Shown piece by piece: positions 16-29,453 of a DNA stretch of 64,000 bases; position 1 is the stretch's first letter; every line of letters begins with the position of its first letter. The position numbers and the translations under genes are program-made. This DNA comes from an uncultured Acidobacteriota bacterium (GTDB lineage Bacteria > Acidobacteriota > Vicinamibacteria > Vicinamibacterales > 2-12-FULL-66-21), in assembly GCA_963785755.1 (NCBI GenBank), contig CAWAXG010000002.1, positions 625,128-689,127 on the forward strand, written 5' to 3'. A model generated the notes under the pieces. The model made no database searches. It saw nothing but the letters and a program-made list of their open reading frames with translations, and was not told where the DNA came from.

Positions 16-900
16 GTGAAGGGCTACCACGACATCGTCGGCGACGGGGGATCCAGAATCCTCGAGCAGGTTGTTGAGCAGCGTACCCGCATAACTGACG
101 GGCTCGCCGGGGTGCGCCATCTCGTGGCCGTGGGCTCCGGCAAGGGGGGCGTCGGCAAGAGCACCTTGACGCTGCATCTCGCGGGCGCTCTGCGTGCCCG
201 GGGGCTTCGAATTGCGATCCTGGACGCGGACTTCAACGGCCCCTCACAGGCGCGTATGGCCGGTGTCCAGGGAGCGCTGTTCGTTCCAGGCAGCCACAAA
301 GTCGCGCTCCCGCGGACCACGAACGGGATCGGGGTCTTCTCGATGGGCTCGATGATCCCCGAGTCGGAGGCGCTCGATTTCGAGAGCGCGGCGCGCGGCG
401 AGTCGCATACGTGGCGCGCCACGAGAGAGTTCGCCCTCCTCGGCGAGATCCTCGGGTCGTTCGAATGGGGATCGCTCGATCTGCTGATGTTCGATCTGCC
501 GCCTGGAGCCGAGCGGACCGTTCAGTACGCCGAGTTTCTCGGCCCGAGGACGTCCTTCGTGCTCGTGACGATCCCTTCTGAAGTGGCACGGGGCGTCGTC
601 GCGCGCTCGGTGGCCGCCCTGTCGAAAGGGCCCAATCGCCTGCTGGGTTACGTCGAGAACATGAGCGGCTATTACTGTCGCGACTGCAACGCGATCAAGC
701 CGCTGTTCGCGTCCGACGCCCCATCGCCGCTGGAAATCCCTTGCTTCGGAACCGTTCCCTTCGATCCCGAGCTCGCGCGCCATTGCGACCGCGGAATTCC
801 GTTCACCGAACTGCGCGACAGCCCAGTGGGCCGGTCCTTCGACCAGATCGCGCAACGACTGCTTGACGGCCTCGAATCGTCACCGGAGTCCAGCCGATGA
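16..900 (+). CDS. Mrp/NBP35 (ApbC-like) P-loop iron-sulfur cluster carrier ATPase
   Basis: Walker A GSGKGGVGKST. Mrp signature ENMSGYYCRDCNAIKPLF with a CxxC motif. The frame is open to the window edge, so the true 5' end may lie upstream. ATGA overlap with the next gene. Confidence 0.85.
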   Translation: MKGYHDIVGDGGSRILEQVVEQRTRITDGLAGVRHLVAVGSGKGGVGKSTLTLHLAGALRARGLRIAILDADFNGPSQARMAGVQGALFVPGSHKVALPRTTNGIGVFSMGSMIPESEALDFESAARGESHTWRATREFALLGEILGSFEWGSLDLLMFDLPPGAERTVQYAEFLGPRTSFVLVTIPSEVARGVVARSVAALSKGPNRLLGYVENMSGYYCRDCNAIKPLFASDAPSPLEIPCFGTVPFDPELARHCDRGIPFTELRDSPVGRSFDQIAQRLLDGLESSPESSR

Positions 901-1334
901 AGTTCCTGTGTGTCCCTTGCGACAGCCCGATGAAGCTGCAGACCATCGGCCCGCCCGAGGGTGGCTCGCTCTCCGTCGTCTACTCCTGTCCCGAGTGCGG
1001 CTACGAGATGGCGATGCTGACCAATCCGTACGAGACACAGGTCGTCCAGTCACTCGGCGTGCGGATCGGTCCCGACACGGGGGCAAGCACCTCTGCTACC
1101 AGCTCCGGCTGCCCGTTCACCGCGATGATGCCTGGGATGGAAGGCGCACGGGCGGGAGGCGGTGAGCCAATCTCGGTCCGGTGGACGTCCGCCGCCGAAG
1201 CGAGGCTCGCGAACATTCCCGAGTTCGTGCGCCCGATGGCGCGGACCGGCATCGAGAAATTCGCCCGGGAAAGAGGGGTCCTTGAAGTCGACGAGAAGAT
1301 CCTCGATGAAGCCCGCGACTTCTTCGGCATGTGA
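897..1334 (+). CDS. Zinc-ribbon protein with C-terminal PCP_red (BchB/ChlB C-terminal-like) domain
   Basis: N-terminal CxxC...CxxC (CVPCDSP...CPECGYE). The C-terminal WTSAAEARLANIPEFVRPMARTGIEKFARERG matches the PF08369-type pattern. 4-nt overlaps with both neighbours. Confidence 0.7.
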   Translation: MKFLCVPCDSPMKLQTIGPPEGGSLSVVYSCPECGYEMAMLTNPYETQVVQSLGVRIGPDTGASTSATSSGCPFTAMMPGMEGARAGGGEPISVRWTSAAEARLANIPEFVRPMARTGIEKFARERGVLEVDEKILDEARDFFGM

Positions 1335-2771
1335 GCGGCGCCCTCGGCATGGACACGTTCACCCGCCCCTACGTTATCTCCTGGAACCTCACCTACCGCT
1401 GCAACCTCGCCTGCGAGCACTGCTATCTCGACGCCGGCGGCACGCCTCAGGTCGGCACGGAGAACTTCTCCGACCGGAGCGAGCTCGGCACCGAGGAATG
1501 CTTCAAGGTCATCGACGAAATCGCCGCGTTCGCGCCTGAATGCCTGACGATCCTGACGGGCGGCGAGCCGCTCCTGCGCCGCGACATCCTCGAGATCGTC
1601 CGGCGCGCGTCGGAGCGCGAGCTCTGGGTCGTCGTCGGCACCAACGGGGTGAGCATCACGGAGAACCTGGCGAAGCGCCTCGCGGACGCCGGCGCGCGGG
1701 GCCTCTCGCTCTCGCTCGATGCGCTCGATCCCGATCGTCACGACCGCTTCAGGATGGTGCGGGGCGCCTGGCGGAACACGGTGGAGGGAGCGGAGATCCT
1801 CAATCGGACCGGGCTGCCCTTCATCGTGCAGACGACCGCGGGCTCGCACAATCTCGGCGAGCTCGAGGCGATCGCCGACTTCGCGCACGAACGCCTCGCC
1901 GCCAGGGTCTGGAACCTCTACTTCCTGGTGCCGACGGGCCGCGGGCAGTACGTGTCGGACATCACTCCTGCCCAGTACCGATGAGGTTCTCGCCTCGCTC
2001 TACCGCATCCAGAGGAAGTACGACCGCCGGATGCTCGTGAACGCGAAGTGCGCGCCACACTACATCAAGACTGTTCTGGAGCAGGCGGGGACAGGCAACG
2101 GGGACAGGCAAGAGGGACAGGCAACCGGGACAGGCAACGGGGACAGCCAGCCGGGACAGGCAAGTCCCTCGTGGCCCGGTCTGTCCGCGATCAGGACCTA
2201 CTCCGGAGGGGCTGGCGGGTGCCCGGCGGGGACGCACTACATGGGGATACGGCCGAACGGTGATGTCACCCCGTGCCCCTACCTCCCGGTGTTTGCGGGG
2301 ACCCTTCGCAGCTCGAGCCTCGCGGACCTCTGGACGTCGTCGGAGCTCTTCGCCGGCATTCGCCGCCGAACCTCGCTCGGCGGCCGTTGCGGCGAGTGCG
2401 AGATGAACGGCCACTGTGGGGGCTGCCGCGCCCGCGCCTACGGGATGACCGGCGATCTGATGGCTGAAGACCCGCTCTGCACCCACACCCCCGGCACGTT
2501 CGCCGGGTCTCCCCTTCTTGCCATCCGTGGCCGGACGTCCGTCGCGGGCGCGCAGGGGCCTGCCACGATTCATTACGGCACCGAATCGGCAACGAGCATC
2601 GCCTGGGACGATGACGCCGCCGCGCGCATGAAGAAGATCCCCGCATTCGTCCGGGGCATGGTCGTCAGGGCCGTCGAGGAATCGTGCCGTAAGAACGGCC
2701 TCGACCGCGTGACCGTGGAGGAACTCGAACGAATCCGCGCGCGGATGCCGACGCCGAAGATGTTTGGGTAG
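1331..2771 (+). pseudogene. Radical SAM/SPASM protein with C-terminal PCP_red-like tail; frame disrupted as assembled (may be a sequencing error)
   Basis: N-part (ORF 1331..1984): YRCNLACEHC (CxxxCxxC) and GGEPLL. C-part (ORF 1719..2771, homology from about 1980): GGCPAG, TPCPY and CGECEMNGHCGGCRARA SPASM cysteines, then IPAFVRGMVVRAVEE. The frames rejoin if one C is removed at CAGTAC[C]GATGAG (about 1979). Confidence 0.8.
2088..2165 (+). repeat. 13-nt tandem repeat x6 (GGGACAGGCAASN) inside the rSAM coding region
   Basis: Units start at 2088, 2101, 2114, 2127, 2140 and 2153. The total of 78 nt is in frame and encodes GTGNGDRQEGQATGTGNGDSQPGQAS. Confidence 0.9.
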
Positions 2772-4615: not shown

Positions 4616-5421
4616 CTATCTGAAGGGGTCCGATGCGGCCTCGATCTGCTCCTTGACCTTTTCGTCCATCCACTTCTGGAAGTCCTCGGTGGTCTGGACG
4701 GTGACGAAGCCCCGCATCCGGAAGTGGCCCAGCCCGCAGAGCTGCGCGCAGGCGATCTCGGTACTGGAACTCGGGTTTCCCGAGTCGGGTCCGCATCTCC
4801 TCGGTCGTGACGTTGGCGACGAACCAGATGGGAATCGTCAGGCCGGGGATGGCGTCCTGCTTCACGCGAAGCTCGGGCACGCCGAAGCTGTGGATGACGT
4901 CCTTGCTCCGGAGCCTCACGATGATCGGCTTGTTCACGGGCAGATAGAACTGATTGAGCGTCGTTACGTCGTCCTTCGCGGCAGGATCGGAGCGATCGAT
5001 TCCCAGGGGATTCGACTGGAGGTCGAGCAGCTTGATGTCGGTGCGGCCGAATTTCCCGTCGGGGCCTGGATAGTGGACGTTCCAGGCGAATTGTTCGCCG
5101 GTTACCTGAACGACGAGCGATTCACTCTCCGGGGGAATGCGATCGACCCTCGCGGCCCAGATCGGGATCGCGAATCCGAAGCAGGAGAATCATTTCGACC
5201 ACGGCCACGCCGCCTTCGAGATAGCTCGAGGTGTGCGACTTGACCCCCGCGTAGTTCGCCACCGGATTCCGCGAACGCCGGAAACGGAACAGGGCGTAGA
5301 TGAAGAAGCTTCCCCACCCGACGAACAGGACGAGCATGAACACATGCGTCCAGCCGATCAGGCCGTCGATCTGCCCGCCGTGAGTCGAGGCGAGCGGAGG
5401 GAGTCCGAGCCACTCTGTCAT
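4616..5421 (-). pseudogene. coxB: Cytochrome c oxidase subunit II (CuA, no cytochrome c domain); two frame disruptions as assembled
   Basis: Three consecutive frames. (1) The 5122..5421 ORF carries the TM helices. (2) The middle part carries VTGEQFAWNVHYPG...DVIHSFGVPELRVKQDAIPG. (3) My own translation of the third frame gives EIACAQLCGLGHFRMRGFVTVQ...DPFR, with the stop at 4616-4618. Breaks lie near 5178 and at CAGTAC[C]GAGATC (+ strand 4758-4765). Confidence 0.85.
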
Positions 5422-5738
5422 GATGTTCTAGGCCCCCTTTGGAGCTCCGACCATTCGGCATCGAGGTCGAGGTCGGCGATGCGCTTCGCGCGCCTGCGAA
5501 GATAGAGAAAAAAGCCCACAAACCCGCCCTGCACCGCAAGGGTGATGGCCAGCATCACCAGGACGCCGAGCTTCGCCCCGTCGATCAGCGGGGTCTCTTC
5601 CGCCCCGAAGCACACCGGGCAGGCGAGCACGCGGGCGCCGCCGGCGATCACCACGAACGCGGCGGTAATCAACGCCTGTCGCGCCGAAGCGAAGCGAAGG
5701 CGGGCCTGCCGCGCCGAAGCGAAGCGAAGGCGGGTCAT
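5418..5738 (-). CDS. Small membrane protein with CPVC motif (unknown function), oxidase-operon encoded
   Basis: Start MTRLRFASARQ at 5738, with an ATGA overlap to the upstream gene. Its stop overlaps the coxII ATG. Two predicted TM stretches and ACPVCFG. Confidence 0.55.
   Translation of the reverse strand: MTRLRFASARQARLRFASARQALITAAFVVIAGGARVLACPVCFGAEETPLIDGAKLGVLVMLAITLAVQGGFVGFFLYLRRRAKRIADLDLDAEWSELQRGPRTS
5675..5734 (-). repeat. 30-bp tandem duplication at the 5' end of the CPVC gene
   Basis: cctgtcgcgccgaagcgaagcgaaggcggg / cctgccgcgccgaagcgaagcgaaggcggg differ at one position. The pair encodes RLRFASARQA twice. Confidence 0.9.
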
Positions 5739-5935
5739 CGCAACGACCTCGTCTTGCGCAGGAACCACGAGTCGTAGACGACCAGGCCGATCGCCACGCC
5801 GAAAGCCGCGACCGCCGAGAACAGGCTTCCGACCCCGCCCTCCTCCCCGTAGATCCCCAGGCACCACACGCCGAACAGCACCGCGAGGGCCGCGGAGAGG
5901 AGGATCAGCGTTGCGTGGAACCACCTGAGGTTCAT
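5735..5935 (-). CDS. Small two-TM membrane protein (unknown function)
   Basis: MNLRWFHATLILLSAALAVLFGVW... Its ATG at 5935 overlaps the coxIV stop (ATGA). Hydrophobic. Confidence 0.5.
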   Translation of the reverse strand: MNLRWFHATLILLSAALAVLFGVWCLGIYGEEGGVGSLFSAVAAFGVAIGLVVYDSWFLRKTRSLR

Positions 5936-6237
5936 TGGTGAATCCAGTAGCCGTTGCTGTGGGTGATCACTGGAAGAGACAGCAGCACGACGAAGAAAAC
6001 AGCGGTCAGCGCGAGGACCGCGATGATCAGCTTTTTCTCGGAGATCAGGTGCATGAAGTAGCACGCCACCAGCGATCCCTTGATGGTTGCGACCAGCAGC
6101 GCGACGGTCACGGCAATCGGCACGGGAAGGTGGACCCGCGAGACCGCCACGGTGACGATTGTAAGGACCATGAGTGCGACGAAGACGGTGATGTAGATCC
6201 TGACGTGCTTGTCGATGTCAGCTGCGTGGTCGCTCAT
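5932..6237 (-). CDS. Cytochrome c oxidase subunit IV (bacterial COX4_pro type)
   Basis: About 100 aa with three TM helices. KHVRIYITVFVALMVLTIVTV...GSLVACYFMHL is typical of prokaryotic subunit IV. Positioned after coxIII. Confidence 0.8.
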   Translation of the reverse strand: MSDHAADIDKHVRIYITVFVALMVLTIVTVAVSRVHLPVPIAVTVALLVATIKGSLVACYFMHLISEKKLIIAVLALTAVFFVVLLSLPVITHSNGYWIHQ

Positions 6238-6246
6238 GGATGCTGC

Positions 6247-6837
6247 CTACAGAAGGTACAGAGTCGGGAAGAGAAAGATCCAGACCAGATCCACGAAATG
6301 CCAGAAGAGGCCCGAGTGCTCGACCCGGTTGGTGAACCACTGCGGGTTCGTCTTCCACTGCTTCGCGCCGGGACCCCAGAAATAGGCGTTCACCACCATC
6401 CCGCCGAACACGTGGAGCATGTGCAGGCCGGTCAGGGTGAAGTAGATGGCGAGGAAGTTGCTCGTGCTGGGAAAGAGTCCGTCGTGGAACTTGTGGCTGT
6501 ATTCGAAGTACTTGACCACGAGGAACACGCCCCCGAGCAGGATCGTCGCCCCCATGTAGAGTCGATAAGTCCCAAAGCGGTGGCGCATCAGCGACGCCCA
6601 CGCCATGACCATCGTGACGGAGGACAGAATCAGGACGATCGTGTTGAACGTAGCGAGCGGGACGTTCAGAATCGTGTCTCCCCGCGGCCAGCTCGGCGCT
6701 CCTGTCCGGATCAGGATGTAGCTCGCGAACAGCGCGCCGAACAGCATGACCTCCGAGGCCAGGAAGAGCCAGATGCCGATCTTGCCGTTGGTGAGACCGG
6801 TGTCGCGCCGGACCTCTACGGTGTAGGGAATGTCCAT
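6247..6837 (-). CDS. ctaE: Cytochrome c oxidase subunit III
   Basis: 196-aa heme-copper oxidase subunit III-like sequence (LFLASEVMLFGALF, HVFGGMV, WHFVDLVW). Confidence 0.9.
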   Translation of the reverse strand: MDIPYTVEVRRDTGLTNGKIGIWLFLASEVMLFGALFASYILIRTGAPSWPRGDTILNVPLATFNTIVLILSSVTMVMAWASLMRHRFGTYRLYMGATILLGGVFLVVKYFEYSHKFHDGLFPSTSNFLAIYFTLTGLHMLHVFGGMVVNAYFWGPGAKQWKTNPQWFTNRVEHSGLFWHFVDLVWIFLFPTLYLL

Positions 6838-6842
6838 TTAGG

Positions 6843-8606
6843 TTACGCCTCGTGCTGCGGCACGAAGTCCCTGGCCGCGCCGGGAACGCTGTACTCGTAG
6901 GGGCCCCGGTGCGCTTCCGGCGCCACGACGAAATTGCCGTGCGGCGGAGGCGAGGGAGCCGCCCACTCGATCGTCGTGGCCTGCCACGGGTTGTCGCCGG
7001 TCTTCTCCCCCTTCCAGATGCTCCAGAAGAAATTGAAGATGAAGGGAATCTGGAAGACGGCGAGGATCCACGCGCCCCAGGAGGACACGACATTCCACTG
7101 GAGGACCGGCTGCGCAAAGTCGTAGCTCGCGCCACCGTCGAACAGCCGCCGCGAGACGCCGGCCAGCCCCACGAGGAACATCGGCATGAAGATGACGTTC
7201 ATGCAGACGAGCGAGCCGAAAAAGTGAATCTTGCCGAGCGTCTCGTTCATCATCCGCCCGGTTGCCTTCGGAAACCAGTAATAGACTCCCGCGAAGAGGG
7301 CGAAGATCGTCCCCGGCGCCACGACGTAATGGAAGTGGCCGATGACGTAGTAGGTGTCGTGCAGCGGAATGTCCGAGATGTTGAAGGCGAGCGGAAGCCC
7401 CGTGAGCCCGCCGATCCCGAACATCGGGAGAAAACCGAGCGCGAAGAGCATCGGCGTATTGAAGCGGATCGATCCGCCCCAGAGCGAGATGATCAGGGCC
7501 GTGAGGATGACGACCGACGGGATCGAGATGATCATCGTCGTCGTCTGGAAGAATGCCGCCATCGTCGTGCCCATGCCGGTCATGAACATGTGGTGCGCCC
7601 ACACGATGAACGACATGAAGCCGAGGAAGACCAGCGAATAGACCATCGAACGGTAGCCCCACAGGGGCTTCCGCGTGTTGTTCGCGACGATCTCGGCCAC
7701 GATTCCCATCCCCGGAAGAATCAGGACGTAGACCTCCGGGTGCGCCAGGAACCAGAACAGGTGCTGCCAGAGCAGCGGGTTGCCGCCGCCGGCCACCGGG
7801 AGGGGCTGGCCGCTGACGACGAGGCCGCTCGGGAGGAAGAAGCTCGTGCCGGCCAGGCGATCCATGAGCTGCATGACCCCCGCGGCCTCGAGCGGCGGAA
7901 ACGCCAGCAGCAGGAGGAAGGCCGTCACGAGCTGGGCCCATACGAAGAAGGGGAACCGCATGAAGGTGAGACCCTTCGTGCGGAGCTGGATCGTCGTTGT
8001 AATGAAGTTGACCGCTCCCAGCAGCGACGAGGTGATCAACAGGACCATCCCGATGAGCCACCACGTCTGGCCCGTGCCCGCGATGTTGGCAAGGGGCGAG
8101 TAGGAGGTCCACCCGGATTGCGCGGCGCCCCCGGGGACGAGAAAGCTGAACAGCATCGTCACGCCGCCGAGGAAGAAGAACCAGTAGCTCGCCATGTTCA
8201 GCCTCGGGAACGCCATGTCCGGGGCTCCGATCTGGAGCGGGAGCACGAAGTTTCCGAATCCGCCGACGGCTAACGGGACCACCCCGAGGAACACCATGAT
8301 GGTGCCGTGCATCGCCCCGAGCTCGTTGTAGAACTCAGGGAGCATCGACCCGCCCGGCATGCGCGCCTCGCCGAAGAGACTGCCGATCAGCGGCAGCGCG
8401 GCGCCCGGGTAGGCGAGCTGCCAGCGCATGAGCATCATCAGCGAAAAGCCGAAGAGCAGGAACAGCAAGCCGGTGATGGCGTACTGGATACCGATGACCT
8501 TGTGGTCGGTCGAGAAGACGTACTTCCACCAGAAGCCGAGCTCCTCGTGATGTGCTTCGTGCGCGGCGGGCGGCTTCGGTCCCGCGACAGCTGCTGGGTG
8601 GCTCAT
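6843..8606 (-). CDS. ctaD: Cytochrome c oxidase subunit I
   Basis: Start MSHPAAV at 8606. STDHKVIGIQY, WFFGHPEVY-like LAHPEVYVLILP and HHMF motifs. 12-TM heme-copper oxidase core. Confidence 0.95.
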   Translation of the reverse strand: MSHPAAVAGPKPPAAHEAHHEELGFWWKYVFSTDHKVIGIQYAITGLLFLLFGFSLMMLMRWQLAYPGAALPLIGSLFGEARMPGGSMLPEFYNELGAMHGTIMVFLGVVPLAVGGFGNFVLPLQIGAPDMAFPRLNMASYWFFFLGGVTMLFSFLVPGGAAQSGWTSYSPLANIAGTGQTWWLIGMVLLITSSLLGAVNFITTTIQLRTKGLTFMRFPFFVWAQLVTAFLLLLAFPPLEAAGVMQLMDRLAGTSFFLPSGLVVSGQPLPVAGGGNPLLWQHLFWFLAHPEVYVLILPGMGIVAEIVANNTRKPLWGYRSMVYSLVFLGFMSFIVWAHHMFMTGMGTTMAAFFQTTTMIISIPSVVILTALIISLWGGSIRFNTPMLFALGFLPMFGIGGLTGLPLAFNISDIPLHDTYYVIGHFHYVVAPGTIFALFAGVYYWFPKATGRMMNETLGKIHFFGSLVCMNVIFMPMFLVGLAGVSRRLFDGGASYDFAQPVLQWNVVSSWGAWILAVFQIPFIFNFFWSIWKGEKTGDNPWQATTIEWAAPSPPPHGNFVVAPEAHRGPYEYSVPGAARDFVPQHEA

Positions 8607-8625
8607 GCGGCTGTTCTCCGGTTCG

Positions 8626-9370
8626 CTACTTCGCGGCCACGGCGAACTTGAAGTCCTGGGTCTTCTTGTCGTTCGCGCGCAACCGTGACGGAAGCCGTCT
8701 GCGTCCCCAGCTTCTCGTGCCAGGCCGTGATCTCGTAGGTGCCCGGATCGAGGCCCGAGATCGTGAACTTCCCGTCCGCGCTCGTGACCGAGTAGAAAGG
8801 ATGGGTGAAGACGCCGATGTATGCGCTCATCCATGGATGGACGTCACACTTGACATGGAAGATCGCCTCAGGCTTGGCGAACGTCGTGGTCGCCTCCTTG
8901 CGCGTCGCCGGGAACGCCTGGTTGAATGTCGGGTTGACCTTTGGTTGCGTGTGGATATTGTGCATGATGCCGTCGGAGTTGAGGATCCGGTAGGGCTGAC
9001 CGACCATTATCCCCATCACGTGCGGCACATATAGGCAGCCCTTCTGATCGAGAACCACCGGTTCCTTGGGAGCCGGGAAGGTCTTGCCGGCCGGAAGCCC
9101 TTTCGAGACCCAGACCATGATGTTCCCCATGGTCTGGCCGCTGCCGAGCACGAGCATCTCGGCCGGCACGGGTTTCGAGTGCTTCTTGGCGCACGCGGGG
9201 TCGGCGTCCATGGCGAGCGGCCTTGGAGTAGGGACTTTCCCGTCGAAGGTGACGGTTCCGCTGATCGACGAGGCGGCGAATGCAACGCCCGGCCAGCACA
9301 ACACCGCGAACAGCCCGGCCACCTGCCACACCCTGTTGAATGTCCCGCGCACACTCGGCTTCTTGGTCAT
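8626..9370 (-). pseudogene. Secreted cupredoxin (type-1 copper-like) protein with carboxypeptidase-regulatory-like beta domains; last ~20 codons out of frame as assembled
   Basis: Signal peptide MTKKPS...GVAFAASS. Ligand-like pattern MHNIH ... KCDVHPWM (C-x2-H-x2-M). GGAGG lies 9 nt upstream of the ATG at 9370. The natural-looking end NDKKTQDFKFAVAAK* (stop 8626) needs a 1-nt correction near 8672-8680. Confidence 0.75.
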
Positions 9371-9600
9371 CGCAAACCTCGCCTCCATCGTCACCTTGAC
9401 GCTAGCACCCGCGATCATTAAGTGGGGCGACTTTACACCGGGGCTTGCCGTCTGTGCAACCCTAGCACAGCCTTTTGAGTCGACGCTTCGCACTGGGAAT
9501 CGGCCCACGATCCGACTTCCGCCTTCGACAAAGGTTTCGCCTTCGCAATGGTAGGGGGCGAGCGGCCGTAGCCTTCGGCGGAGGCTGGCTGGCGGACAGG

Positions 9601-10815
9601 TCAAACGTTCTCGAACGCCATCGATTCGGCAAGCCTCGGGTCGCGTAATGGAACGAGCGCCTGCCGTCGCATCAGCCAGCCCGCGGCCGCCACGAAGCAC
9701 CCGCCGATCGCAACGAGCGCGGCCAGGTCCAGCGCCGACGGGCTGGGCCCATGGGGATGGAGCGTCGGCATGACCTGCCAGTAGAGATCCAGGAAGTGCA
9801 TCGCGAGGAGCCACGCTCCGCCGATGGCCAGGGTCGTTCCCCTCCGCTTGACGGCACGCCCCATCAGATAGAAGAACGGAACTCCGAAGTGTCCCGCCAT
9901 GAGGAACAGCGAGACCGTCAGCCAGGAGCCTTCCATTCGCGCCTTGTACCAGATCGTCTCCTCCGGGAGGTTCGCGTACCACATGAGGAAGAACTGGGAG
10001 AAGGCGATATAGGCCCAGAACGCCGTGAATGCGAACAGGAGCTTGCCGATATCGTGCAGGTGCTCGTCGCTGATGATCGTGTCCAGCAGCCCGGCCCTGC
10101 GCATCGCCACCACGATGACCGAGAGCAGCGCGATGAACCCCACGAAGGAACCGGCGAAGAAATAGACGCCGAAGATGGTCGAGTACCAGTGCGGCGTGAG
10201 CGACATGATCCAGTCGATCGAGGCGAAGGTCTGGGTCAGCGCGAGGACCATGATTGCGGGCCCGGCGAGGCGTCGCAGACGGGCGGACACGCCGGGATCC
10301 CCCGTCTCGTCCTGACCGCGCGAGCCGCGGTAGTAGAGCAGCGCGATGAAGGACCAGATTCCGAAGAAGAGCGCCGCCCGGATCAGGAAGAACGGCACGT
10401 TGAGGTATGGCGCCTTCCAGCGAAGCAGCGCATCGTGTTCGGCTGCGTCGGCATGGGACCATTCGTAGAGATCGTGCAGCCCGAGGAGCAACGGGAGGAA
10501 GAGGGCCGCCATCACGGGGAGCGTTGCGAAGATCGTCTCCCCGATCCGCCGCACCACGATCCCCCATCCTCCCTGCGCCGCGTACTGGATCAGCACGAAG
10601 AAGAGCGCGCCGAGGGCCAGGCTCAGGAAGAACAGGAACGACACCAGCCACGAGAAGAAGAACTGCTTCGGATTCCCGGCGCCGAGAATCGCGCAGACCA
10701 CCACTCCCAGCAGGGCGCACACGGCGCCGATCATCGGAATGCGGTTCCACGGGTGCCCCGGGGGAATCGTGGCCTGCTCGGGCCGCAGCGCCACGTGATC
10801 GTGTGCGGAGATCAT
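9601..10815 (-). CDS. actF: ACIII ActF-like (NrfD-related) integral membrane subunit
   Basis: Polytopic membrane protein (FFFSWLVSFLFFLSLALGALFFVLIQY..., KAPYLNVPFFLIRAALFF) located after actD. Start chosen at MISAHDH (10815). Confidence 0.7.
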   Translation of the reverse strand: MISAHDHVALRPEQATIPPGHPWNRIPMIGAVCALLGVVVCAILGAGNPKQFFFSWLVSFLFFLSLALGALFFVLIQYAAQGGWGIVVRRIGETIFATLPVMAALFLPLLLGLHDLYEWSHADAAEHDALLRWKAPYLNVPFFLIRAALFFGIWSFIALLYYRGSRGQDETGDPGVSARLRRLAGPAIMVLALTQTFASIDWIMSLTPHWYSTIFGVYFFAGSFVGFIALLSVIVVAMRRAGLLDTIISDEHLHDIGKLLFAFTAFWAYIAFSQFFLMWYANLPEETIWYKARMEGSWLTVSLFLMAGHFGVPFFYLMGRAVKRRGTTLAIGGAWLLAMHFLDLYWQVMPTLHPHGPSPSALDLAALVAIGGCFVAAAGWLMRRQALVPLRDPRLAESMAFENV

Positions 10816-10941
10816 TCTTCCCCGGGGGACTTCGTCCCCGGACCCCCTTACACGCGCGCTCGCGGGGGCCCTCACGCCCCGCTCCGCGCGCGTGGCTCGC
10901 TCGCTGCGCTCACTCGCTGTCGAGAGTGGTTATTCATGATT

Positions 10942-11565
10942 TCAGGACTCCACGAGCTCGACGGTGCGGGCGCCCAGGGATTCAAGCAGCTTGCCGGTGG
11001 CCGACGGATCGAACCGGGGATCCCAGGATTCGATCGAAATGAAGAAGGCGTCGTCGGTCACACGCTCGAAGACCTTGGATCGGAAGAGCGGATGGTAGTG
11101 CATGGGGAGCCGGTTGAGGCCGAACATGCCGAAGACGGCGCCGAGCGCGCCGAAAAGGACGGCGAGCTCGAAGGTAATCGGAATGAAGGCGGGCCAGGAG
11201 AAAAACGGTTTGCCGCTGATCACGAGGGGATAGGCGGTGGTGTGGACCCACCACTGCAGGACGAACCCGAGTGCGGCCCCCATCAGTCCCATGCCGAGGA
11301 CGATCCAGGGAAGCGGGGATCGCCGGAGCCCCATCGCTTTCTCGAGGCCGTGGACAGGGAACGGGCTGTGGGCATCCCACTTGGTGAAGCCCGCGTCACG
11401 CACCCGCTCGCACGCGTGATACAGGTCCGCAGGCGTCGCGAATTCGGCGAGGAGTCCGTAATAGGGCCCCTTCGGGAGCTGCGGGGAGAGCAACGGCATT
11501 GTCCTGAGCGAGCGACCTGTCCGCCATAGCGCGAAGCGCGAAGGCGGAAGCGAGTCGAAGGGCAT
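10942..11565 (-). CDS. actD: ACIII ActD-like protein (DUF3341)
   Basis: YGLLAEFATPADLYHACERVRDAGFTKWDAHSPFPVHGL ... FFISIESWDPRFD. The ATG at 11565 overlaps the actC stop (ATGA). An alternative start is 66 nt downstream. Confidence 0.8.
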   Translation of the reverse strand: MPFDSLPPSRFALWRTGRSLRTMPLLSPQLPKGPYYGLLAEFATPADLYHACERVRDAGFTKWDAHSPFPVHGLEKAMGLRRSPLPWIVLGMGLMGAALGFVLQWWVHTTAYPLVISGKPFFSWPAFIPITFELAVLFGALGAVFGMFGLNRLPMHYHPLFRSKVFERVTDDAFFISIESWDPRFDPSATGKLLESLGARTVELVES

Positions 11566-13079
11566 CAGGAGGCTCCTTCGGGAGCGGGCTCCGACGCCCC
11601 ACGCCCCGCGGCGGTCCGGTGGTCCTTGATTACGCGTTCGGTGCCGGGCTGCCAATGCGGATCGGCCTGCGGCAGCACGGTCTTGACCTCGGCGGTTGCC
11701 ACCATCGGAAGAAAGCGCACGAACAGGCAGAACATCGTGAAGAAGAGCCCGAAGCTTCCAAGCAGGCACGCCACGTCCCAGAACGTGGGAGTGAAGTAGC
11801 TCCAGGCCGAGGGCAGGAAGTCACGGTGCAGCGACGTCACGATAATCACGAACCGCTCGAACCACATGCCGATGTTGATCACGATCGACACTACGAACAG
11901 GATCGGGATGCTCGTGCGCGCCTTCTTGGACCAGAAAATCTGGGGGCTGATCACGTTGCAGGTGACCATGATCCAGTAGGCCCAGGCGTACGGTCCCAGG
12001 GCGCGGTTCATGAACGTGAAGTACTGGTACGGGTTCCCGCTGTACCAGGCGGTGAAGAACTCCGTGGCATAGGCGTAGCCCACCATCGATCCGGTCACCA
12101 ACATGATCTTCGCCATGTAGTCGAAGTGCCGGAGCGTGATGATGTGCTCGAGGCCGAACGCCTTGCGGCAGATCACCATGAGCGTCAGCACCATGGCGAA
12201 CCCGGAAAAGATCGCGCCCGCGACGAAGTACGGCGGGAAGACCGTCGTATGCCATCCGGGGAGGAGGGAGACCGCGAAATCCATCGAGACGATCGAATGA
12301 ACCGAGAGGACCAGCGGCGTCGCGAGGGCCGCGAGAATGAGATACGCGGATTCGTAGTGATGCCATTGCCGCACGGAGCCCCGCCATCCGAGAGCGAAGA
12401 GACCGTAGACGAACTTCCTCGTCGGAGTCTTCGCCCGATCGCGCATCGTCGCCAGGTCCGGGATCAGGCCGATGTACCAGAACAGGACCGAGACGGTTCC
12501 GTAGATGCTGACCGCGAAGACGTCCCAGAGAAGAGGGCTCCTGAAGTTGGGCCACATGCCCATCTGGTTCGGGAGCGGGAACATCCAGTAGGCGACCCAG
12601 ACGCGTCCCACGTGGATCCCGGGAAACGTCAGGGCACACATGACTGCGAAGATGGTCATGGCCTCGGCGGAGCGATTGATCGACGTGCGCCATTTCTGGC
12701 GGAAGAGGAACAGGATCGCTGAGATGAGCGTGCCGGCGTGCCCGATCCCGACCCAGAACACGAAATTCGTGATGTCCCACGCCCATCCGACGGGGACGTT
12801 GAGGCCCCAGATGCCGATCCCCTCCCAGAACAGCCATGAGACCGCGACGCCGAGCAGGCCGAGGAGGGCGACCGATGGGATGAAGAAGATCCACCAGCCG
12901 ATCGGTGTCGGCCGTTCGATCGGCTCCGCGACGACCTCGGTGATTGAGTGAAAATCCGGCGAGCGCAGGATGAGCGTCGGCCGGCCCGCGACAGGGTTGT
13001 CTAGCAGTTCTGCTTCCGTCTGGGCCAAGCCCGCTCCCGCGTTGAGTTTTGAAAAGTGGCCGTTTGTACCATCGCGCAT
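11565..13079 (-). CDS. actC: ACIII ActC-like quinol-interacting NrfD/PsrC-family membrane subunit
   Basis: 504 aa. [43 protein letters not shown] is typical of ActC/NrfD. Confidence 0.85.
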
Positions 13080-14625: not shown

Positions 14626-15312
14626 ATGAATACACTGGTTGCCATCCGGAATCTCCACAAGGTGTACTTCCGCGGAAGCGAGCGGATCGACGTGCTTCAG
14701 GGGATCACCCTCGACATCCCTGAAGGGGATTTCCTGGCGCTCATGGGACCGTCGGGCTCGGGCAAGACGACGCTGCTGAACCTGATGGGGGGCCTGGACA
14801 CGCCGTCGGAGGGCTCGATTCAGGTGGGCGGGGATCAGATCGACAAGCTCTCGGGCGGCCGTCTGGCCGCGTGGCGGGCGCGTCACATCGGATTCGTCTT
14901 CCAGATGTACAACCTGTTGCCGGTGCTCACCGCGGCCAAGAACATCGAGCTGCCGCTGCTGCTGACCAAGCTGTCCTCAGCGGACCGCAAGCGGCGGGTC
15001 CAGGTCGCACTGAATGTCGTCGGGCTTGGCGAGCGCGCGCATCACTATCCGCGCCAGCTGTCCGGCGGTCAGGAGCAGCGCGTCGGCATCGCCCGGGCGA
15101 TCGTCACGGATCCGACGCTGCTCCTCTGCGACGAGCCGACCGGCGATCTCGATCGAAAGTCCGGTGACGAGATTCTGGAGCTGCTGACCGCGTTGAACCG
15201 CGACCACGGCAAGACGATCGTCATGGTCACCCACGACCCCCATGCCGCGGCGCGGGCGAAGCGCACGCTGCACCTCGAAAAGGGACTGCTCGTACAGGAG
15301 GCTGCCGCATGA
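14626..15312 (+). CDS. ABC transporter ATP-binding protein (MacB/LolD type)
   Basis: GPSGSGKTTLLN, LSGGQEQRVGIARA and LLLCDEPTGDLD. Confidence 0.95.
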   Translation: MNTLVAIRNLHKVYFRGSERIDVLQGITLDIPEGDFLALMGPSGSGKTTLLNLMGGLDTPSEGSIQVGGDQIDKLSGGRLAAWRARHIGFVFQMYNLLPVLTAAKNIELPLLLTKLSSADRKRRVQVALNVVGLGERAHHYPRQLSGGQEQRVGIARAIVTDPTLLLCDEPTGDLDRKSGDEILELLTALNRDHGKTIVMVTHDPHAAARAKRTLHLEKGLLVQEAAA

Positions 15313-16476
15313 AGTTCCTGCCGCTGGTCATCCGCAATCTGGGACGGCGCAAGGTCAGGACGATTTTCACGATCCTGTCGATCATGATCGCCTTCCTCCT
15401 GTTCGGCGTCTTGATGGCGATCCGCGCGGCGTTCAGCATGGGCGTCGACATCGCCGGCGCCGATCGGCTGATGGTGATCCACAAGATGGGGTTCATGATG
15501 CCGCTGCCGCCCGGCCACGGCCCCAAGATTCGCGCCACGCCGGGCGTGACCGATGTGACGCATGCGAACTGGTTCGGCGGGTACTACCAGGAGCCGAGCA
15601 ACTTCCTGGCGAACTTCGCCGTCGACCCGGAGAGCTGGCTCAGGATGTATCCGGAGTATCAGGTACCGGAAGAGCAGAAGAAAGCCTGGTTCGCCAACCG
15701 GGCCGGTGCGATCGTCGGTATCGACACCGCCAAGAAATTCAACTGGAAAATCGGCGATCGGGTTCCACTCATCTCACCGATTTACCGGAAGCCGGATGAT
15801 ACGCCGTGGGATTTCACGATCGACGGGATTTACGACGCGACAGCGCCGGGCGTGGACAAGACACAATTCTTCTTCCACTACGAGTACATGAACGAGGCGC
15901 TGCGTGCCGCCAACGTCAGGCTCAGCGACATCATCGGCTGGTACATCGTACCGTGTTGACGATCCGGCTTCTGCCGATGCACTCGCCAAACGAATCGACC
16001 AGGTATTCGAGAACTCGACCGGAGAGACGAAAACAGCGACCGAAAAGGCGTTCGCCGCGGACTTTGCGAACCAGGTCGGCGACATCGGCACGATCATGAT
16101 CGCGATCACCGGGGTGGTCATGGGGTTCATCCTGTTCGTCGCGGGGAACTCGCTGGCGCAGTCCGTCCGTGAACGCATCAACGAGCTGGGCGTGCTGAAG
16201 ACCCTCGGCTTCACGGACGGCCGGATCCTGGCGATTGTGCTGCTGGAATCCTGCACCATTGCGGTCATCGGCGGCGGCATCGGCCTGCTCCTGGCCTGGG
16301 TCATCATCGCCCAGGGGGATCCCACAGGCGGGTTCCTGCCGATCTTTCACTTCCCGCCGCGCGACCTGATCTTCGGCATCGCCCTCGTCGGCATCCTCGG
16401 GATCGCCACCGGCCTCATCCCGGCGCTGCAGGCCAGCCGATTGAAGATCGTGGACGCATTACGTCGAGCGGGATAG
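15309..16476 (+). pseudogene. ABC transporter permease (FtsX/MacB_PCD type); one frame disruption as assembled
   Basis: ORF 15309..15959 continues in ORF 15904..16476 (..GWYIV|RVDDPASADALAKRID..). An extra C at ATCGTA[C]CGTGTT (about 15951). The FtsX C-terminus is intact. Confidence 0.85.
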
Positions 16477-16591: not shown

Positions 16592-17779
16592 ATGAACTGG
16601 CTGTCACAGACCCTCGCCGTCACCGCAGTAACACTGCGATCGATACCCCAGCGTCTCGGTTCGTCCATCGTCGCGGTCATCGGCATCGGCGGTGTGGTCA
16701 TCGTGGTCATATCCGTGCTCTCGATTGCCGAGGGGTTCCGCGCGGCGATGCGCGGCACCGGCGATCCTCAGACGGTGATCGTGATGCGATCAGGAAGCGA
16801 CACGGAGATGACCAGCACGTTCTCGGGAGAAGAGGCCAAACTCATCACCGAGGCGCCTGGTATCGAGCGGGCGGAAGATGGCGCGCATGCCTCGCCGGAG
16901 CTGTTCGTAATCATTGCCATTCCGCTCAGCCGAAGCGGCACCGATGCCAACGTTCCCCTGCGAGGGGTGCGGCCGGTCGCGCTCAAGGTGAGACCACAGA
17001 TAGAGATCATCGAGGGCCGCATGTTCAATCCGGGCACCTCGGAGATCGTCGTCGGCCGCGCCGCTTCGCGGCAGTTCAGCGGCGTCGGCGTGGGATCGAC
17101 CGTGCGATCGGGCAAGACGTCGTGGCAGGTCGTCGGGATCTTCGACGCCGGCGGCAGCGTCGCCGAATCCGAGTTGTGGTGCGATTCCAGCGTGCTGCAG
17201 GGCGCGTTTCAGCGCGGGAACTCCTACCAGTCGGTCTACCTGAGGCTCGAGACCGTCGACAGTCTGCAGAAGCTGAAGGACGCGCTCACCACGGATCCGC
17301 GGCTCAGCGTCACCGTCGTTCGTGAGCCGGACTACTACGCGGAACAGTCTCAAGTACTTCAGAGCGTCATTCGTACGGTCGGCATGGCCATCGGCATCCT
17401 GATGGGAGTGGGTGCGGTCTTCGGTGCCGTGAACACGATGTACTCGGCGGTCGCGGCACGCACCAGAGAGATCGCGACGCTGCGCGCGCTCGGCTTCGGC
17501 GCCATGCCGGTGGTCCTCTCAGTGCTCGGAGAAGCGCTCTTGTTGAGCCTCGTCGGCGGCACACTCGGGGGGCTGCTTGCCTGGGCGGCGTTCGATGGGT
17601 ACCAGACCGCCACCATGAACTGGCAGTCGTTCAGTCAGGTCGCGTTCTCGTTCGCGGTGACCCCGGAGCTGCTGGTGCGGGGACTGATCTACGCCTCCCT
17701 GATGGGGCTACTCGGTGGCCTGCTGCCTGCGATCCGCGCCGCCCGCCTTCCGGTCGTGACGGCTCTGCGCCAGCTCTAA
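16592..17779 (+). CDS. ABC transporter permease (FtsX/MacB_PCD type)
   Basis: 395-aa intact ORF. N-terminal TM, periplasmic domain and C-terminal FtsX helices (REIATLRALGFGAMPV...). Confidence 0.9.
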   Translation: MNWLSQTLAVTAVTLRSIPQRLGSSIVAVIGIGGVVIVVISVLSIAEGFRAAMRGTGDPQTVIVMRSGSDTEMTSTFSGEEAKLITEAPGIERAEDGAHASPELFVIIAIPLSRSGTDANVPLRGVRPVALKVRPQIEIIEGRMFNPGTSEIVVGRAASRQFSGVGVGSTVRSGKTSWQVVGIFDAGGSVAESELWCDSSVLQGAFQRGNSYQSVYLRLETVDSLQKLKDALTTDPRLSVTVVREPDYYAEQSQVLQSVIRTVGMAIGILMGVGAVFGAVNTMYSAVAARTREIATLRALGFGAMPVVLSVLGEALLLSLVGGTLGGLLAWAAFDGYQTATMNWQSFSQVAFSFAVTPELLVRGLIYASLMGLLGGLLPAIRAARLPVVTALRQL

Positions 17780-29222: not shown

Positions 29223-29453
29223 ATGCCACTTTTCGAGTATCAATGCGGAGATTGCGAACAGGAGTTCGAGGCGTTCGTCACCGCCGACCGCAAGGCCGAG
29301 TGCCCGGCGTGCCACGGGGAAAACCTCAGGAAGCTGCTGTCGAGCCCGGGAATGGTTGGCGCGGCAAACGGCAGCCGCCGCGACGCCTCAGCACCAATGC
29401 CCGGCCGATGCGGCGCCGGCGGCGCGCACTGCGCCTGCCGCAGCGACCACTGA
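29223..29453 (+). CDS. FmdB-family zinc-ribbon protein
   Basis: MPLFEYQCGDCEQEFE...AECPACHG (CxxC..CxxC regulatory zinc ribbon). Confidence 0.75.
   Translation: MPLFEYQCGDCEQEFEAFVTADRKAECPACHGENLRKLLSSPGMVGAANGSRRDASAPMPGRCGAGGAHCACRSDH

Follow-up and report, generated by a model that had tools for sequence, protein, structure and literature searches.

The window, i.e. the whole 64-kb stretch of DNA analysed here, harbors a minus-strand gene cluster in which genes for three membrane subunits of an alternative complex III (ACIII) are followed by genes for a copper protein and an oxidase (Table 1). Gene coordinates and family assignments bear out the order that an earlier note had read from the DNA, i.e. 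actC, actD, actF, a cupredoxin gene, coxI, coxIII, coxIV, two genes for small membrane proteins and coxII. The many ATGA overlaps described there shrink to three of the nine junctions (coxIV/s66, s66/s106 and s106/coxII); the apparent ATGA overlap of cup and coxI is an artefact, because the stop codon of cup moves to 8626-8628 once an extra base is removed (see below). That all genes form one operon is unproven, since about 206-230 bp lie between actF and the cupredoxin gene. The gap between actD and actF has the reported 126 bp, but it is a local insertion rather than a vestige of actE, because these two genes lie 3-4 nt apart in relatives. The fold of this spacer is not significant (z = -1.9), and no second copy of it occurs elsewhere in the window. 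Translation of actF' could also begin at a GTG at 10875.

Table 1. Features of the cluster and of its convergent neighbours, in coordinates of the window.
Feature	Position	Strand	Description	Support or remark
actC'	11565..13079	-	NrfD-like quinol-binding ACIII membrane subunit, 504 aa	Pfam NrfD 4e-21
actD'	10942..11499	-	two-helix ACIII membrane subunit, 185 aa	Pfam PF11821 ActD 8e-69
actD'-actF' spacer	10816..10941	-	126 bp, G+C-rich, hairpins	specific to this window
actF'	9601..10815	-	second NrfD-like ACIII membrane subunit, 404 aa from ATG	
cup	8603..9370	-	predicted secreted amicyanin-like type-1 copper domain nested in CarboxypepD_reg-type beta-sandwich	
coxI	6843..8606	-	A-family heme-copper oxidase subunit I, 587 aa, HPEVY motif	
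coxIII	6247..6837	-	196 aa, short five-helix type	Pfam COX3 4e-16
coxIV	5932..6237	-	prokaryotic subunit IV, 101 aa	PF03626 1.6e-12
s66	5735..5935	-	66-aa two-helix membrane protein, cassette-conserved	
s106	5418..5738	-	106-aa membrane protein, Cys motif before helix	
coxII	4616..5421	-	CuA-only subunit II, 268 aa once repaired	three frames, two 1-nt indels
convergent neighbour trio	16..2771	+	MrpORP/ApbC-like Fe-S carrier ATPase, PCP_red-domain protein, AhbD/NirJ-like radical SAM/SPASM protein	

Judged from sequence comparison, ActC', ActD' and ActF' are typical ACIII membrane subunits. ActC' matches the biochemically characterised ActC of Rhodothermus marinus (6f0k_C) with 67% identity (phmmer, E = 1.6e-208) and is 59% identical to Flavobacterium johnsoniae ActC (6BTM), while the R. 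marinus and F. johnsoniae proteins share 61%. In the alignment, all quinol-site residues (W82, I86, F89, P136, H139, L166, D169, V250 and D253) as well as S245 are identical, with the numbering and the choice of quinol-site and coupling residues taken from the R. marinus work (PMC5928083). ActD' (E = 9.7e-57 to 6f0k_D) retains Glu122 and the periplasmic loop YPL.ISGKPFF, and ActF', for which Pfam gave no match, retains Tyr284 (E = 3.5e-96 to 6f0k_F). Clade-specific changes are almost absent, with none in ActD' against 43 canonical ActD sequences, one column in ActF' against 52 canonical ActF sequences and a single substitution over the entire ActC' against canonical ActC. Canonical ActC has 37 periplasmic-loop positions with a conservation of at least 90%, and ActC' is the same at 33 of them. 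Its identity of 72-92% across phyla shows strong constraint. We regard ActC'D'F' as a paralogue of the ACIII membrane arm in which both the quinol pocket and the coupling residues (Asp-Glu-Ser-Tyr) are preserved.

As stated in the earlier note, CxxCH is found in none of the ten products of the cluster. Only two such motifs (29301 and 43837) occur in all six frames of the window, both outside the cluster region and the chosen genes, and no likely gene contains either of them; the 64 kb are thus free of genes for c-type cytochromes. The reported lack of ActA, ActB and ActE likewise held when proteins from related loci were used as tblastn queries, which matched nothing in the window. ActG/H are also absent from the locus and the window.

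A profile search, an AlphaFold2 (AF2) model and Foldseek support the proposal that the secreted protein, Cup, is a type-1 copper protein. Pfam matches are restricted to its C-terminal half (CarboxypepD_reg/fn3_3), with no Pfam cupredoxin model at E <= 0.01. The Cup profile (A2) matches the blue copper protein 5fc9 (1.5e-5) and amicyanin (2.4e-5). In Foldseek, the AF2 model (pLDDT 88.2) resembles the NirK cupredoxin domain, amicyanin, pseudoazurin and plastocyanin, each at a probability of 1.00 (target-normalised TM-score 0.56-0.72). Over 86 sequences, H137, C175 and H178 never vary, and M181 is kept in at least 90%, giving the ligand set His...Cys-x2-His-x2-Met within the amicyanin-type pattern P-H-N-V-H ... 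C-x2-H-x2-M. Most probably, Cup carries a genuine type-1 copper domain of the amicyanin kind, embedded in a beta-sandwich. It shares the cupredoxin fold and the ligand pattern with amicyanin, pseudoazurin and plastocyanin; unlike in these proteins, the domain is inserted in a CarboxypepD_reg-like beta-sandwich and accompanied by two more invariant cysteines (C60 and C112) and a conserved MDADP.C...H motif. Many Cup paralogues carry a lipobox and a long linker, like membrane-tethered carriers.

Besides Cup, the seven-gene cassette encodes an A-family (aa3-like) oxidase; subunit II of this enzyme carries CuA and lacks a cytochrome c domain. CoxI matches Pfam COX1 (1.5e-134) and TIGR02891 (2.4e-175), with the aa3 oxidases of P. 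denitrificans and R. sphaeroides as its best solved relatives (about 1e-123). CoxIII matches a CtaE/CyoC-like NCBIfam family, and CoxIV exceeds the cut-off of TIGR02229 (caa3_sub_IV, 3e-14). CoxII was assigned to TIGR02866 (CoxB, 1.6e-38) and aligns its CuA ligands with those of R. sphaeroides subunit II, its best solved relative (8e-19); as claimed before, it ends shortly after the CuA site, namely 32 residues past the motif CAQLCGLGHFRM. The small proteins s66 and s106 match no family in Pfam or NCBIfam. Both are conserved, s66 in 43 loci with the consensus M.L...H...I.....LA..FG.WCL ... GL..Y..WFLRK and s106 in 50 loci with the motif A-C-(P/S)-x-C-(F/Y)-G.

Neither coxII nor cup is intact as assembled. 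The coxII gene is not a single ORF but contains two 1-nt frame changes, at about 5169-5184 (a short T run) and about 4751-4766 (an extra C), so that tblastn recovers it in three pieces (4619-4780, 4758-5180 and 5179-5421). In cup, an extra base at about 8668-8683 replaces the conserved C-terminus. Three 1-nt indels in 4.7 kb of coding sequence could mean that the locus is decaying in this genome and that the oxidase genes are a pseudogene set, which we regard as very improbable: the fragments flanking the shifts still share 70-90% protein identity with relatives and show no stops or other damage, and one shift sits in a short homopolymer run. Moreover, the radical SAM gene of the neighbouring trio, an unrelated conserved gene, is equally defective (frameshift at about 1979), a MacB-like gene (15309-16476) is apparently split likewise, and four sister loci from long-read MAGs (L003, L012, L065 and L069) display similar defects. 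The frameshifts are most likely indel errors of long-read assembly.

The cluster is real and widely conserved in soil Acidobacteriota; no publication describing it was found. ActC'D'F'-Cup-Cox recurs in 45 loci, plus five more that end at contig ends, with hosts among Vicinamibacteria, Thermoanaerobaculia, Verrucomicrobiia, Binatia and others. The earlier note had named in-line actA, actB and actE in every orthologous cluster as an observation that would speak against its reading. In none of the about 50 clusters is actE placed between actD and actF, and none is preceded by actA/actB in its own orientation; the architecture is therefore conserved and not due to an assembly break. Such a break, or a local deletion that removed the three genes from the contig, would account for their absence but is exceedingly improbable, given that some 50 assemblies, made independently in short- and long-read projects and covering several phyla, repeat the gene order, keep 3-4 nt between actD' and actF' and have unrelated genes upstream of actC'. 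A mis-assembly is hence refuted by this synteny survey.

The context of ActF splits cleanly by its identity to the window protein. Every ActF with at least about 47% identity lies in the Cup context without ActE. A second group, at about 52% to 40%, has ActE alongside and shows the canonical order ActA-B-C-D-E-F-CoxII(cyt c), with ActA and ActB also flanking wherever the contig extends far enough upstream; the identity ranges of the two groups overlap slightly. The cassette cup-coxI-coxIII-coxIV-s66-s106-coxII also occurs without ActC'D'F' in 29 loci and is a mobile seven-gene unit. In L001 and L002, a complete ACIII-caa3 operon leads directly into it. Seven relatives (L004, L008, L022, L025, L027, L038 and L040) encode a complete, divergent actA (5 CxxCH)-actB-actC operon a few kb upstream of the cluster, and four (L013, L035, L044 and L084) have an upstream cytochrome-c-fused caa3 operon. 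Co-occurrence with ActB is evident for a minority only, because 38 of the 45 syntenic loci show none in the flank (up to 10 kb on each side, less at contig ends). The complete act operon of these Acidobacteriota is closest to the photosynthetic Roseiflexus/Chloroflexus type, with the canonical ActC of L002 being 64.6% identical to 6lod_C.

Among known systems, the respiratory ACIII of R. marinus (ActABCDEF(G/H), PDB 6F0K), a partner of a caa3 oxidase (PMC5928083), provides the best solved relatives of ActC', ActD' and ActF', with identical quinol pocket and coupling residues and with act genes likewise clustered with oxidase genes. The present locus differs by the lack of ActA, ActB, ActE and ActG/H, by a CoxII without cytochrome c domain and by the cupredoxin gene between actF and coxI. 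The ACIII-aa3 supercomplex of F. johnsoniae (PDB 6BTM), in which ACIII is the sole electron source of the oxidase and ActE is dispensable (PMC8552683), also pairs ACIII with an aa3-type oxidase, but ActA and ActB are kept and a copper protein is not involved. A blue copper acceptor downstream of ACIII has a precedent in auracyanin, the small blue copper protein that takes electrons from the photosynthetic ACIII of Roseiflexus/Chloroflexus (PMC8552683). There, however, ActB and the hemes of ActA/ActE relay the electrons to auracyanin, which works for a reaction centre instead of an oxidase and lacks the beta-sandwich host domain of Cup. Blue copper donors to A-family oxidases are encoded in the rusticyanin-aa3 (rus) operon of Acidithiobacillus ferrooxidans and, as sulfocyanin, in the Sulfolobus SoxM complex, where electron input depends on cytochromes (Cyc1/Cyc2) or a Rieske/cytochrome b module, respectively. 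These systems belong to different lineages, do not draw electrons from an ACIII-type membrane arm and are likened to the present one by function.

The cluster thus poses a testable question, namely by which route quinol electrons reach oxygen. The most likely reading, to which we give about an even chance, is that ActA and ActB act in trans to form a second ACIII isoform for a copper-fed oxidase, with Cup feeding CuA. The locus combines two conserved units, the seven-gene oxidase cassette and the ActC'D'F' arm. In this model, the arm would recruit ActA/ActB, and possibly also ActE, encoded by a complete act operon at another site of the genome; the resulting isoform would be dedicated to, and perhaps docked to, the oxidase, while Cup would replace cytochrome c. 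Electrons could pass from quinol at the ActC' site via the ActB Fe-S clusters, the ActA hemes and the cupredoxin copper to CuA, heme a and heme a3/CuB, and both ActC'/ActF' and the oxidase would translocate protons. The option raised earlier that the catalytic subunits are encoded elsewhere gains support from the divergent and caa3-type operons, the operon-cassette junction and the near lack of clade-specific substitutions described above. That two arms share ActA/ActB is an assumption, because complete act operons have their own ActC/D/F, and such sharing has no experimental precedent for ACIII. A possible analogy, from a different complex, is offered by cyanobacterial NDH-1, whose isoforms arise by swapping NdhD/NdhF paralogues from separate loci, i.e. 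paralogous membrane-arm subunits on a common peripheral module. On the other hand, the tightly conserved linkage of ActC'D'F' to the oxidase, without peripheral subunits in any of the loci examined, would also fit a self-sufficient module, and ActC' might need its conserved periplasmic residues for the quinol site and proton exit instead of ActB docking.

Such a module, a quinol oxidase of ActC'D'F', cupredoxin and oxidase without Fe-S clusters or heme c, is conceivable but unlikely. The type-1 copper protein or the CuA domain would dock at the periplasmic face of ActC', in the usual place of ActB, and take quinol electrons singly for transfer to CuA. Consistent with this, Cup-Cox follows ActC'D'F' wherever the contig is long enough, cup is placed exactly between actF' and coxI, in-line ActA/B/E and, within the window, c-type cytochromes are lacking, and ActC' is presumably redox-active because its quinol pocket is intact. 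Yet each complex in Table 1 of a survey of NrfD-like complexes (Calisto & Pereira, PMC8076601) pairs the NrfD-like subunit with an Fe-S subunit, and a new periplasmic partner is expected to change the surface, whereas ActC'/ActD' lack a clade-specific surface change. Furthermore, Cup sequences do not differ by whether ActC'D'F' is adjacent (77% identity within groups as well as between them, no group-specific column), the cassette occurs without ActC'D'F' in many lineages, and complete act operons are adjacent in the seven relatives. Even less probable is a loss of quinol oxidation that would leave ActC'D'F' as a structural or proton-conducting accessory of the oxidase, or let them scaffold a supercomplex with canonical ACIII. 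That ActC'D'F' always accompany the oxidase cassette, and in no case redox subunits, would fit this role, but H139, D169, D253 and S245 of ActC, E122 of ActD and Y284 of ActF are all retained, ActC' is strongly constrained, and it is not evident where a module without redox input would obtain its energy.

Beyond coxII, the MrpORP/ApbC-like, PCP_red and radical SAM trio also occurs in about 30 related loci; its identities were assigned by Pfam on the window and by NCBIfam on the L001 orthologues.

Within the window, all ten minus-strand genes described by the earlier note were found at 4616-13079 in the claimed order (see the table). They encode copies of three membrane subunits of alternative complex III (ACIII), here written ActC', ActD' and ActF' as distinct from the canonical subunits of complete act operons, followed by a secreted cupredoxin-like protein (Cup) and an oxidase. 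As had been claimed, none of the ten products contains a heme-c motif (CxxCH), and a six-frame translation of the whole window has just two such motifs, at 29301 and 43837, both outside likely genes. Likewise, tblastn searches with ActA, ActB and ActE of related loci returned no match within the window, in agreement with the reported lack of these subunits. This holds for ActB with its molybdopterin-like domain and four-cluster Fe-S domain (queried with ActB of two of these loci, L008 and L001) as well as for the pentaheme ActA and monoheme ActE cytochromes c, for which the CxxCH scan and tblastn concur. Since ActA, ActB and ActE were looked for and are absent, the locus falls outside ACIII as defined, though its membrane subunits are bona fide ACIII components.

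Gene layout of the cluster in the window and basis of each assignment
Gene	Position	Strand	Basis
actC	11565-13079	-	Pfam NrfD, 4e-21
actD	10942-11499	-	PF11821 ActD, 8e-69
actF-like	9601-10815	-	no Pfam match; 6f0k_F (R. marinus ACIII structure), E=3.5e-96
cup (secreted cupredoxin-like protein)	8603-9370	-	fold and ligand evidence (see text)
coxI	6843-8606	-	COX1, 1.5e-134
coxIII	6247-6837	-	COX3
coxIV	5932-6237	-	PF03626; TIGR02229
s66 (small membrane protein)	5735-5935	-	no family match
s106 (small membrane protein)	5418-5738	-	no family match
coxII	4616-5421	-	CoxB/COX2

The 126-bp gap between actD and actF (10816-10941), previously read as the place of actE, does exist, but it represents a local insertion, because actD' and actF' are only 3-4 nt apart in related loci. 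It is G+C-rich with hairpins such as GGGGAC-GAA-GTCCCC; no further copy occurs in the window, and its predicted fold is not significant. An Rfam search of the window gave no match, and promoter and terminator scans yielded matches at chance level only. About 206-230 bp separate actF from cup. Upstream of actC, a spacer of 313 bp is followed by divergent HlyD/MacB-type efflux genes, and a sulfatase gene lies downstream of coxII.

All three membrane proteins have R. marinus ACIII subunits as their best solved relatives (ActC E=1.6e-208, ActD 9.7e-57, ActF 3.5e-96). ActC' of the window is 67% identical to R. marinus ActC, which itself shares less (61%) with ActC of F. johnsoniae; with ActC from the complete act operon of sister genomes, ActC' shares 56.5%. 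Sousa et al. assigned W82, I86, F89, P136, H139, L166, D169, V250 and D253 of ActC to the quinol pocket and proposed a coupling plane including S245 of ActC, E122 of ActD and Y284 of ActF (PMC5928083). In the alignment, the pocket residues are all identical in ActC' of the window, including W82, H139, D169 and D253, and the three coupling-plane residues are all kept in the window proteins. A comparison of 48 ActC' with 25 canonical ActC sequences revealed a single clade-specific substitution, located in TM10, while of 37 periplasmic-loop positions with at least 90% conservation in canonical ActC, 33 are unchanged in ActC', with the topology taken from our own reading of hydrophobic segments. 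ActD' shows no clade-specific change and ActF' one. Judged from these alignments, ActC'D'F' are ordinary, constrained ACIII membrane subunits, and the identities together with the quinol-site and coupling residues bear out their earlier description as an ACIII-like membrane module.

CoxI displays an A-family heme-copper oxidase fold with the helix-VI motif HPEVY. Its best solved relatives are the aa3 oxidases of Paracoccus and Rhodobacter (about 1e-123); heme A itself, which the name aa3 implies, is not legible from sequence. After repair of two frameshifts, CoxII contains the CuA site H...C-x3-C-x3-H-x2-M, all ligands of which align with Rhodobacter subunit II. It stops 32 residues past this motif and, as the earlier note had stated, lacks the cytochrome c domain that is fused to subunit II in caa3-type oxidases; relatives encode the fused type in a separate operon. 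By sequence, the locus thus classifies as an A-family oxidase locus not of the caa3 type. The CuA motif of cassette-type CoxII reads CAQLCG (window 4720-4760 and 65 related loci), with Gln in place of the usual Glu of C-x-E-x-C, whereas CAEYCG or CTEYCG, with the Glu kept, stands at this place in the CoxII type of these genomes that is fused to cytochrome c. In oxidases, this Glu is also a ligand of the Mg/Mn site. Two small membrane proteins without family assignment, s66 and s106, are conserved alongside these subunits. s106 harbors an invariant A-C-(P/S)-x-C-(F/Y)-G just ahead of its helix, possibly a lipobox or a metal-binding CxxC, as well as a basic YLRRRAK tail.

The assignment of Cup is less straightforward, as the Pfam match is confined to the C-terminal half of a CarboxypepD_reg/fn3_3 beta-sandwich and none of the curated cupredoxin models (Pfam Copper-bind/Cupredoxin_1; NCBIfam) matches at E <= 0.01. 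A profile of 63 diverse members nonetheless matches blue copper proteins in the PDB across the full cupredoxin domain (5fc9, 1.5e-5; amicyanin, 2.4e-5; pseudoazurin, 0.05), and the motifs L-H-N-V-H and K-C-D-V-H-P-W-M align to amicyanin His53 and Cys92/His95/Met98. Among 86 sequences, H137, C175 and H178 never vary, and M181 is kept in at least 90%. The diversity of this alignment stems from a search started with a Thermoanaerobaculia paralogue, an earlier profile having given only close Vicinamibacterial relatives. Based on the 86 sequences, AlphaFold2 returned a model with pLDDT 88.2, whereas a shallow alignment of 17 sequences reached only 54 and its model was unusable. With the former, Foldseek retrieved the NirK cupredoxin domain, amicyanin, pseudoazurin and plastocyanin at a probability of 1.00 and TM-scores of 0.56-0.72, normalised to target. 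The host beta-sandwich includes the N-terminal strand (ISGTVTFDGKVP) and the C-terminal strands, so that the cupredoxin domain is nested within it. The N-terminus reads as a putative signal peptide (hydrophobic helix 11-24, then AFA-AS). A cupredoxin fold in the predicted structure and a His, Cys, His, Met ligand set in canonical spacing support the earlier type-1-copper-like call, and Cup is predicted to be a secreted type-1 copper protein that shares fold and ligands with amicyanin-type cupredoxins, yet fits no curated cupredoxin model.

Two further cysteines, C60 and C112, are also invariant in the 86 sequences. The former is part of an invariant MDADP-x-C-x3-H motif (residues 54-64), which together with C112 could form a disulfide or a second metal site. 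A heme-binding role for this motif was dropped, since it has neither a second cysteine nor CxxCH. Many Cup paralogues outside the cluster carry a lipobox and a Pro/Ala-rich linker in place of the signal peptide, like tethered electron carriers. In six Thermoanaerobaculia loci (L064, L074, L075, L078, L080 and L081; about 10001-10600), a second Cup paralogue with lipobox and long Pro/Ala-rich linker is encoded besides the in-cluster copy and transcribed divergently from actC'.

In this assembly, coxII is not intact. Its translation passes through three frames owing to the loss of one base from a T run at about 5169-5184 and the gain of one C at about 4751-4766. In cup, one extra base at about 8668-8683 displaces the conserved C-terminus of the family, ...TKTQDFKFAVPAK; repair moves the stop to 8626-8628, 19 nt ahead of coxI. 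The apparent ATGA overlap of cup/coxI is therefore artefactual, and true overlaps of this kind exist at three junctions, coxIV/s66, s66/s106 and s106/coxII. The radical SAM gene at the window start is also frameshifted (at about 1979), and similar fragmentation is seen in sister loci from long-read soil MAGs (L003, L012, L065, L069). Because at least one unrelated window gene and these sister loci are broken likewise, the frameshifts in coxII and cup are probably assembly or sequencing indels rather than gene decay, which leaves real pseudogenisation of the locus in this genome as a minor alternative. In addition, a MacB-type permease gene seems to be split into overlapping ORFs (15309-15959 and 15904-16476) next to an intact paralogue at 16592-17779, and other same-strand ORF overlaps (about 25300, 41500, 51000, 56300 and 57100) may be more indel errors.

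When the Cup alignment was scanned against one genome per species, relatives turned up in the genomes of at least 595 species, and protein searches yielded over 7,400 clusters (90% identity). These proteins are mostly labeled "plastocyanin" by JGI and "carboxypeptidase regulatory-like domain-containing protein" by NCBI. Synteny was surveyed in 163 fetched loci by tblastn with the ten window proteins as well as canonical ACIII and caa3 proteins. The full order ActC'-ActD'-ActF'-Cup-CoxI-CoxIII-CoxIV-s66-s106-CoxII is present in 45 loci including the window, and 5 more end at contig edges. Those with the full order belong to Vicinamibacteria, Thermoanaerobaculia, one Verrucomicrobiia MAG, Binatia, Polarisedimenticolaceae and others, the nearest relatives of the window being Vicinamibacteria with 84-92% identity in ActC'. 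None of the about 50 syntenic loci has actE, or actA/actB upstream on the same strand. Mis-assembly, which would have explained the missing subunits by a local break, is excluded by this recurrence of the same order.

A second scan, of metagenomes with the ActF' alignment as query, separated two contexts. ActF proteins at least about 47% identical to that of the window occur in Cup context every time, with Cup and the cassette starting after ActC'D'F' wherever the contig is long enough. Those about 52% down to 40% identical have ActE alongside, and ActA and ActB too where the contig reaches upstream, in the canonical order ActA-ActB-ActC-ActD-ActE-ActF-...-CoxII(cyt c)-CoxI-CoxIII-CoxIV. The contexts split cleanly by identity, though the two ranges overlap slightly. 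Conversely, 29 loci (Omnitrophota, Marinimicrobia/Fidelibacterota, Planctomycetes, some Vicinamibacteria) contain the Cup-oxidase unit without ActC'D'F'. The locus therefore consists of two units, a mobile seven-gene oxidase cassette (cup-coxI-coxIII-coxIV-s66-s106-coxII) and an optional ActC'D'F' module. One variant (L046, 7287-10582) has the order ActC-ActD-Cup-CoxI... without ActF, and its ActC and ActD are just 49-55% identical to those of the window.

Complete act operons are found close by in seven relatives from Vicinamibacterales, Binatia and Thermoanaerobaculia (L004, L008, L022, L025, L027, L038, L040), where they run divergently from a start 1-3 kb upstream of actC' and encode ActA with five CxxCH, ActB of about 1,040 aa and then their own ActC. 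Same-strand caa3 operons with fused cytochrome c, which normally end a complete act operon, lie upstream in four other loci (L013, L035, L044, L084). In L001 and L002, the Cup-oxidase cassette directly follows a complete ACIII-caa3 operon and ActC'D'F' is lacking. These operons, including the order in L001/L002, show that the lineages do carry full ACIII, by which the cassette can evidently be served.

Taken together, the cluster combines an intact quinol-binding membrane arm that has no cofactors itself, a predicted secreted type-1 copper protein and a CuA-only A-family oxidase. ActC'D'F' is obligately linked to Cup and oxidase in the examined loci, and at least some of the same genomes have complete ACIII operons. 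The favoured model, to which we give an even chance, is that ActC'D'F' borrows ActA and ActB from a complete operon. The resulting second ACIII isoform would be dedicated to the copper-fed oxidase, and electrons would pass from the ActA hemes via Cup to CuA. A similar role is known for auracyanin, the electron acceptor of photosynthetic ACIII (PMC8552683). The sharing of peripheral subunits is backed by the lack of surface change in ActC' and ActD', by the likeness of Cup sequences whether or not ActC'D'F' adjoins, and by the presence of an Fe-S subunit beside the NrfD-like subunit in each complex of a review table (PMC8076601). Against it count that in the examined loci no peripheral subunit travels with ActC'D'F', that the complete operon already has its own membrane arm, and that ActB is nearby in a minority of loci only.

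In the main rival model, Cup or the CuA domain takes the place of ActB on ActC'. Such copper-only wiring, for which the constant company of ActC'D'F', Cup and oxidase would speak, appears rather unlikely, and the Fe-S subunit of every complex in that table counts against it. ActC'D'F', Cup and the CuA-only oxidase would then constitute a self-contained quinol:oxygen oxidoreductase, in which the NrfD-like site would hand over electrons directly to type-1 copper or CuA, without iron-sulfur cluster or heme c. A non-redox accessory role of ActC'D'F', whose quinol-pocket residues are kept, is a minor further alternative to subunit sharing.

Vicinamibacteria and their relatives within the Acidobacteriota rank among the most abundant bacteria of soils, and the cluster seems to belong to their standard set of loci for aerobic respiration. 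Being abundant and conserved, it is of interest for the sharp either/or that it poses on how ACIII is built. Full-text searches as well as ACIII structure and review papers yielded no description of an actCDF-cupredoxin-cox cluster, a result limited to that scope and no proof of novelty. The membrane arm of ACIII can be passed on and kept as a unit in its own right, apart from the redox arm, and the cassette represents a cytochrome-c-independent, copper-fed A-family oxidase unit moving between phyla. If subunits are shared, subunit-swapping isoforms would be a new principle for ACIII. If instead the wiring is copper-only, the locus would provide the first case of an NrfD-type quinol site that operates with no Fe-S partner, and a copper-wired, double-pumping respiratory supercomplex would be widespread in soil Acidobacteriota.

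Two neighboring gene sets deserve mention. An FAD-dependent aromatic monooxygenase with weak UbiH/Coq6-family similarity is encoded on the same strand immediately upstream of actC' in many Vicinamibacterial loci, namely L008 (5379-6599), L007, L012-L016, L021, L022, L026, L028, L044, L086, L090, L091 and L094; the window has no such gene. This enzyme could hint at a modified quinone substrate. A trio of genes converges on the cassette end in the window (16-2771, plus strand), in L001 (14898-17859) and in about 30 other loci of several lineages. It encodes an MrpORP/ApbC-like Fe-S carrier ATPase, a small PCP_red-domain protein and an AhbD/NirJ-like radical SAM/SPASM protein, the latter of a heme-modifying family with a score below curated cut-offs, and may be a cofactor-maturation set tied to this oxidase.
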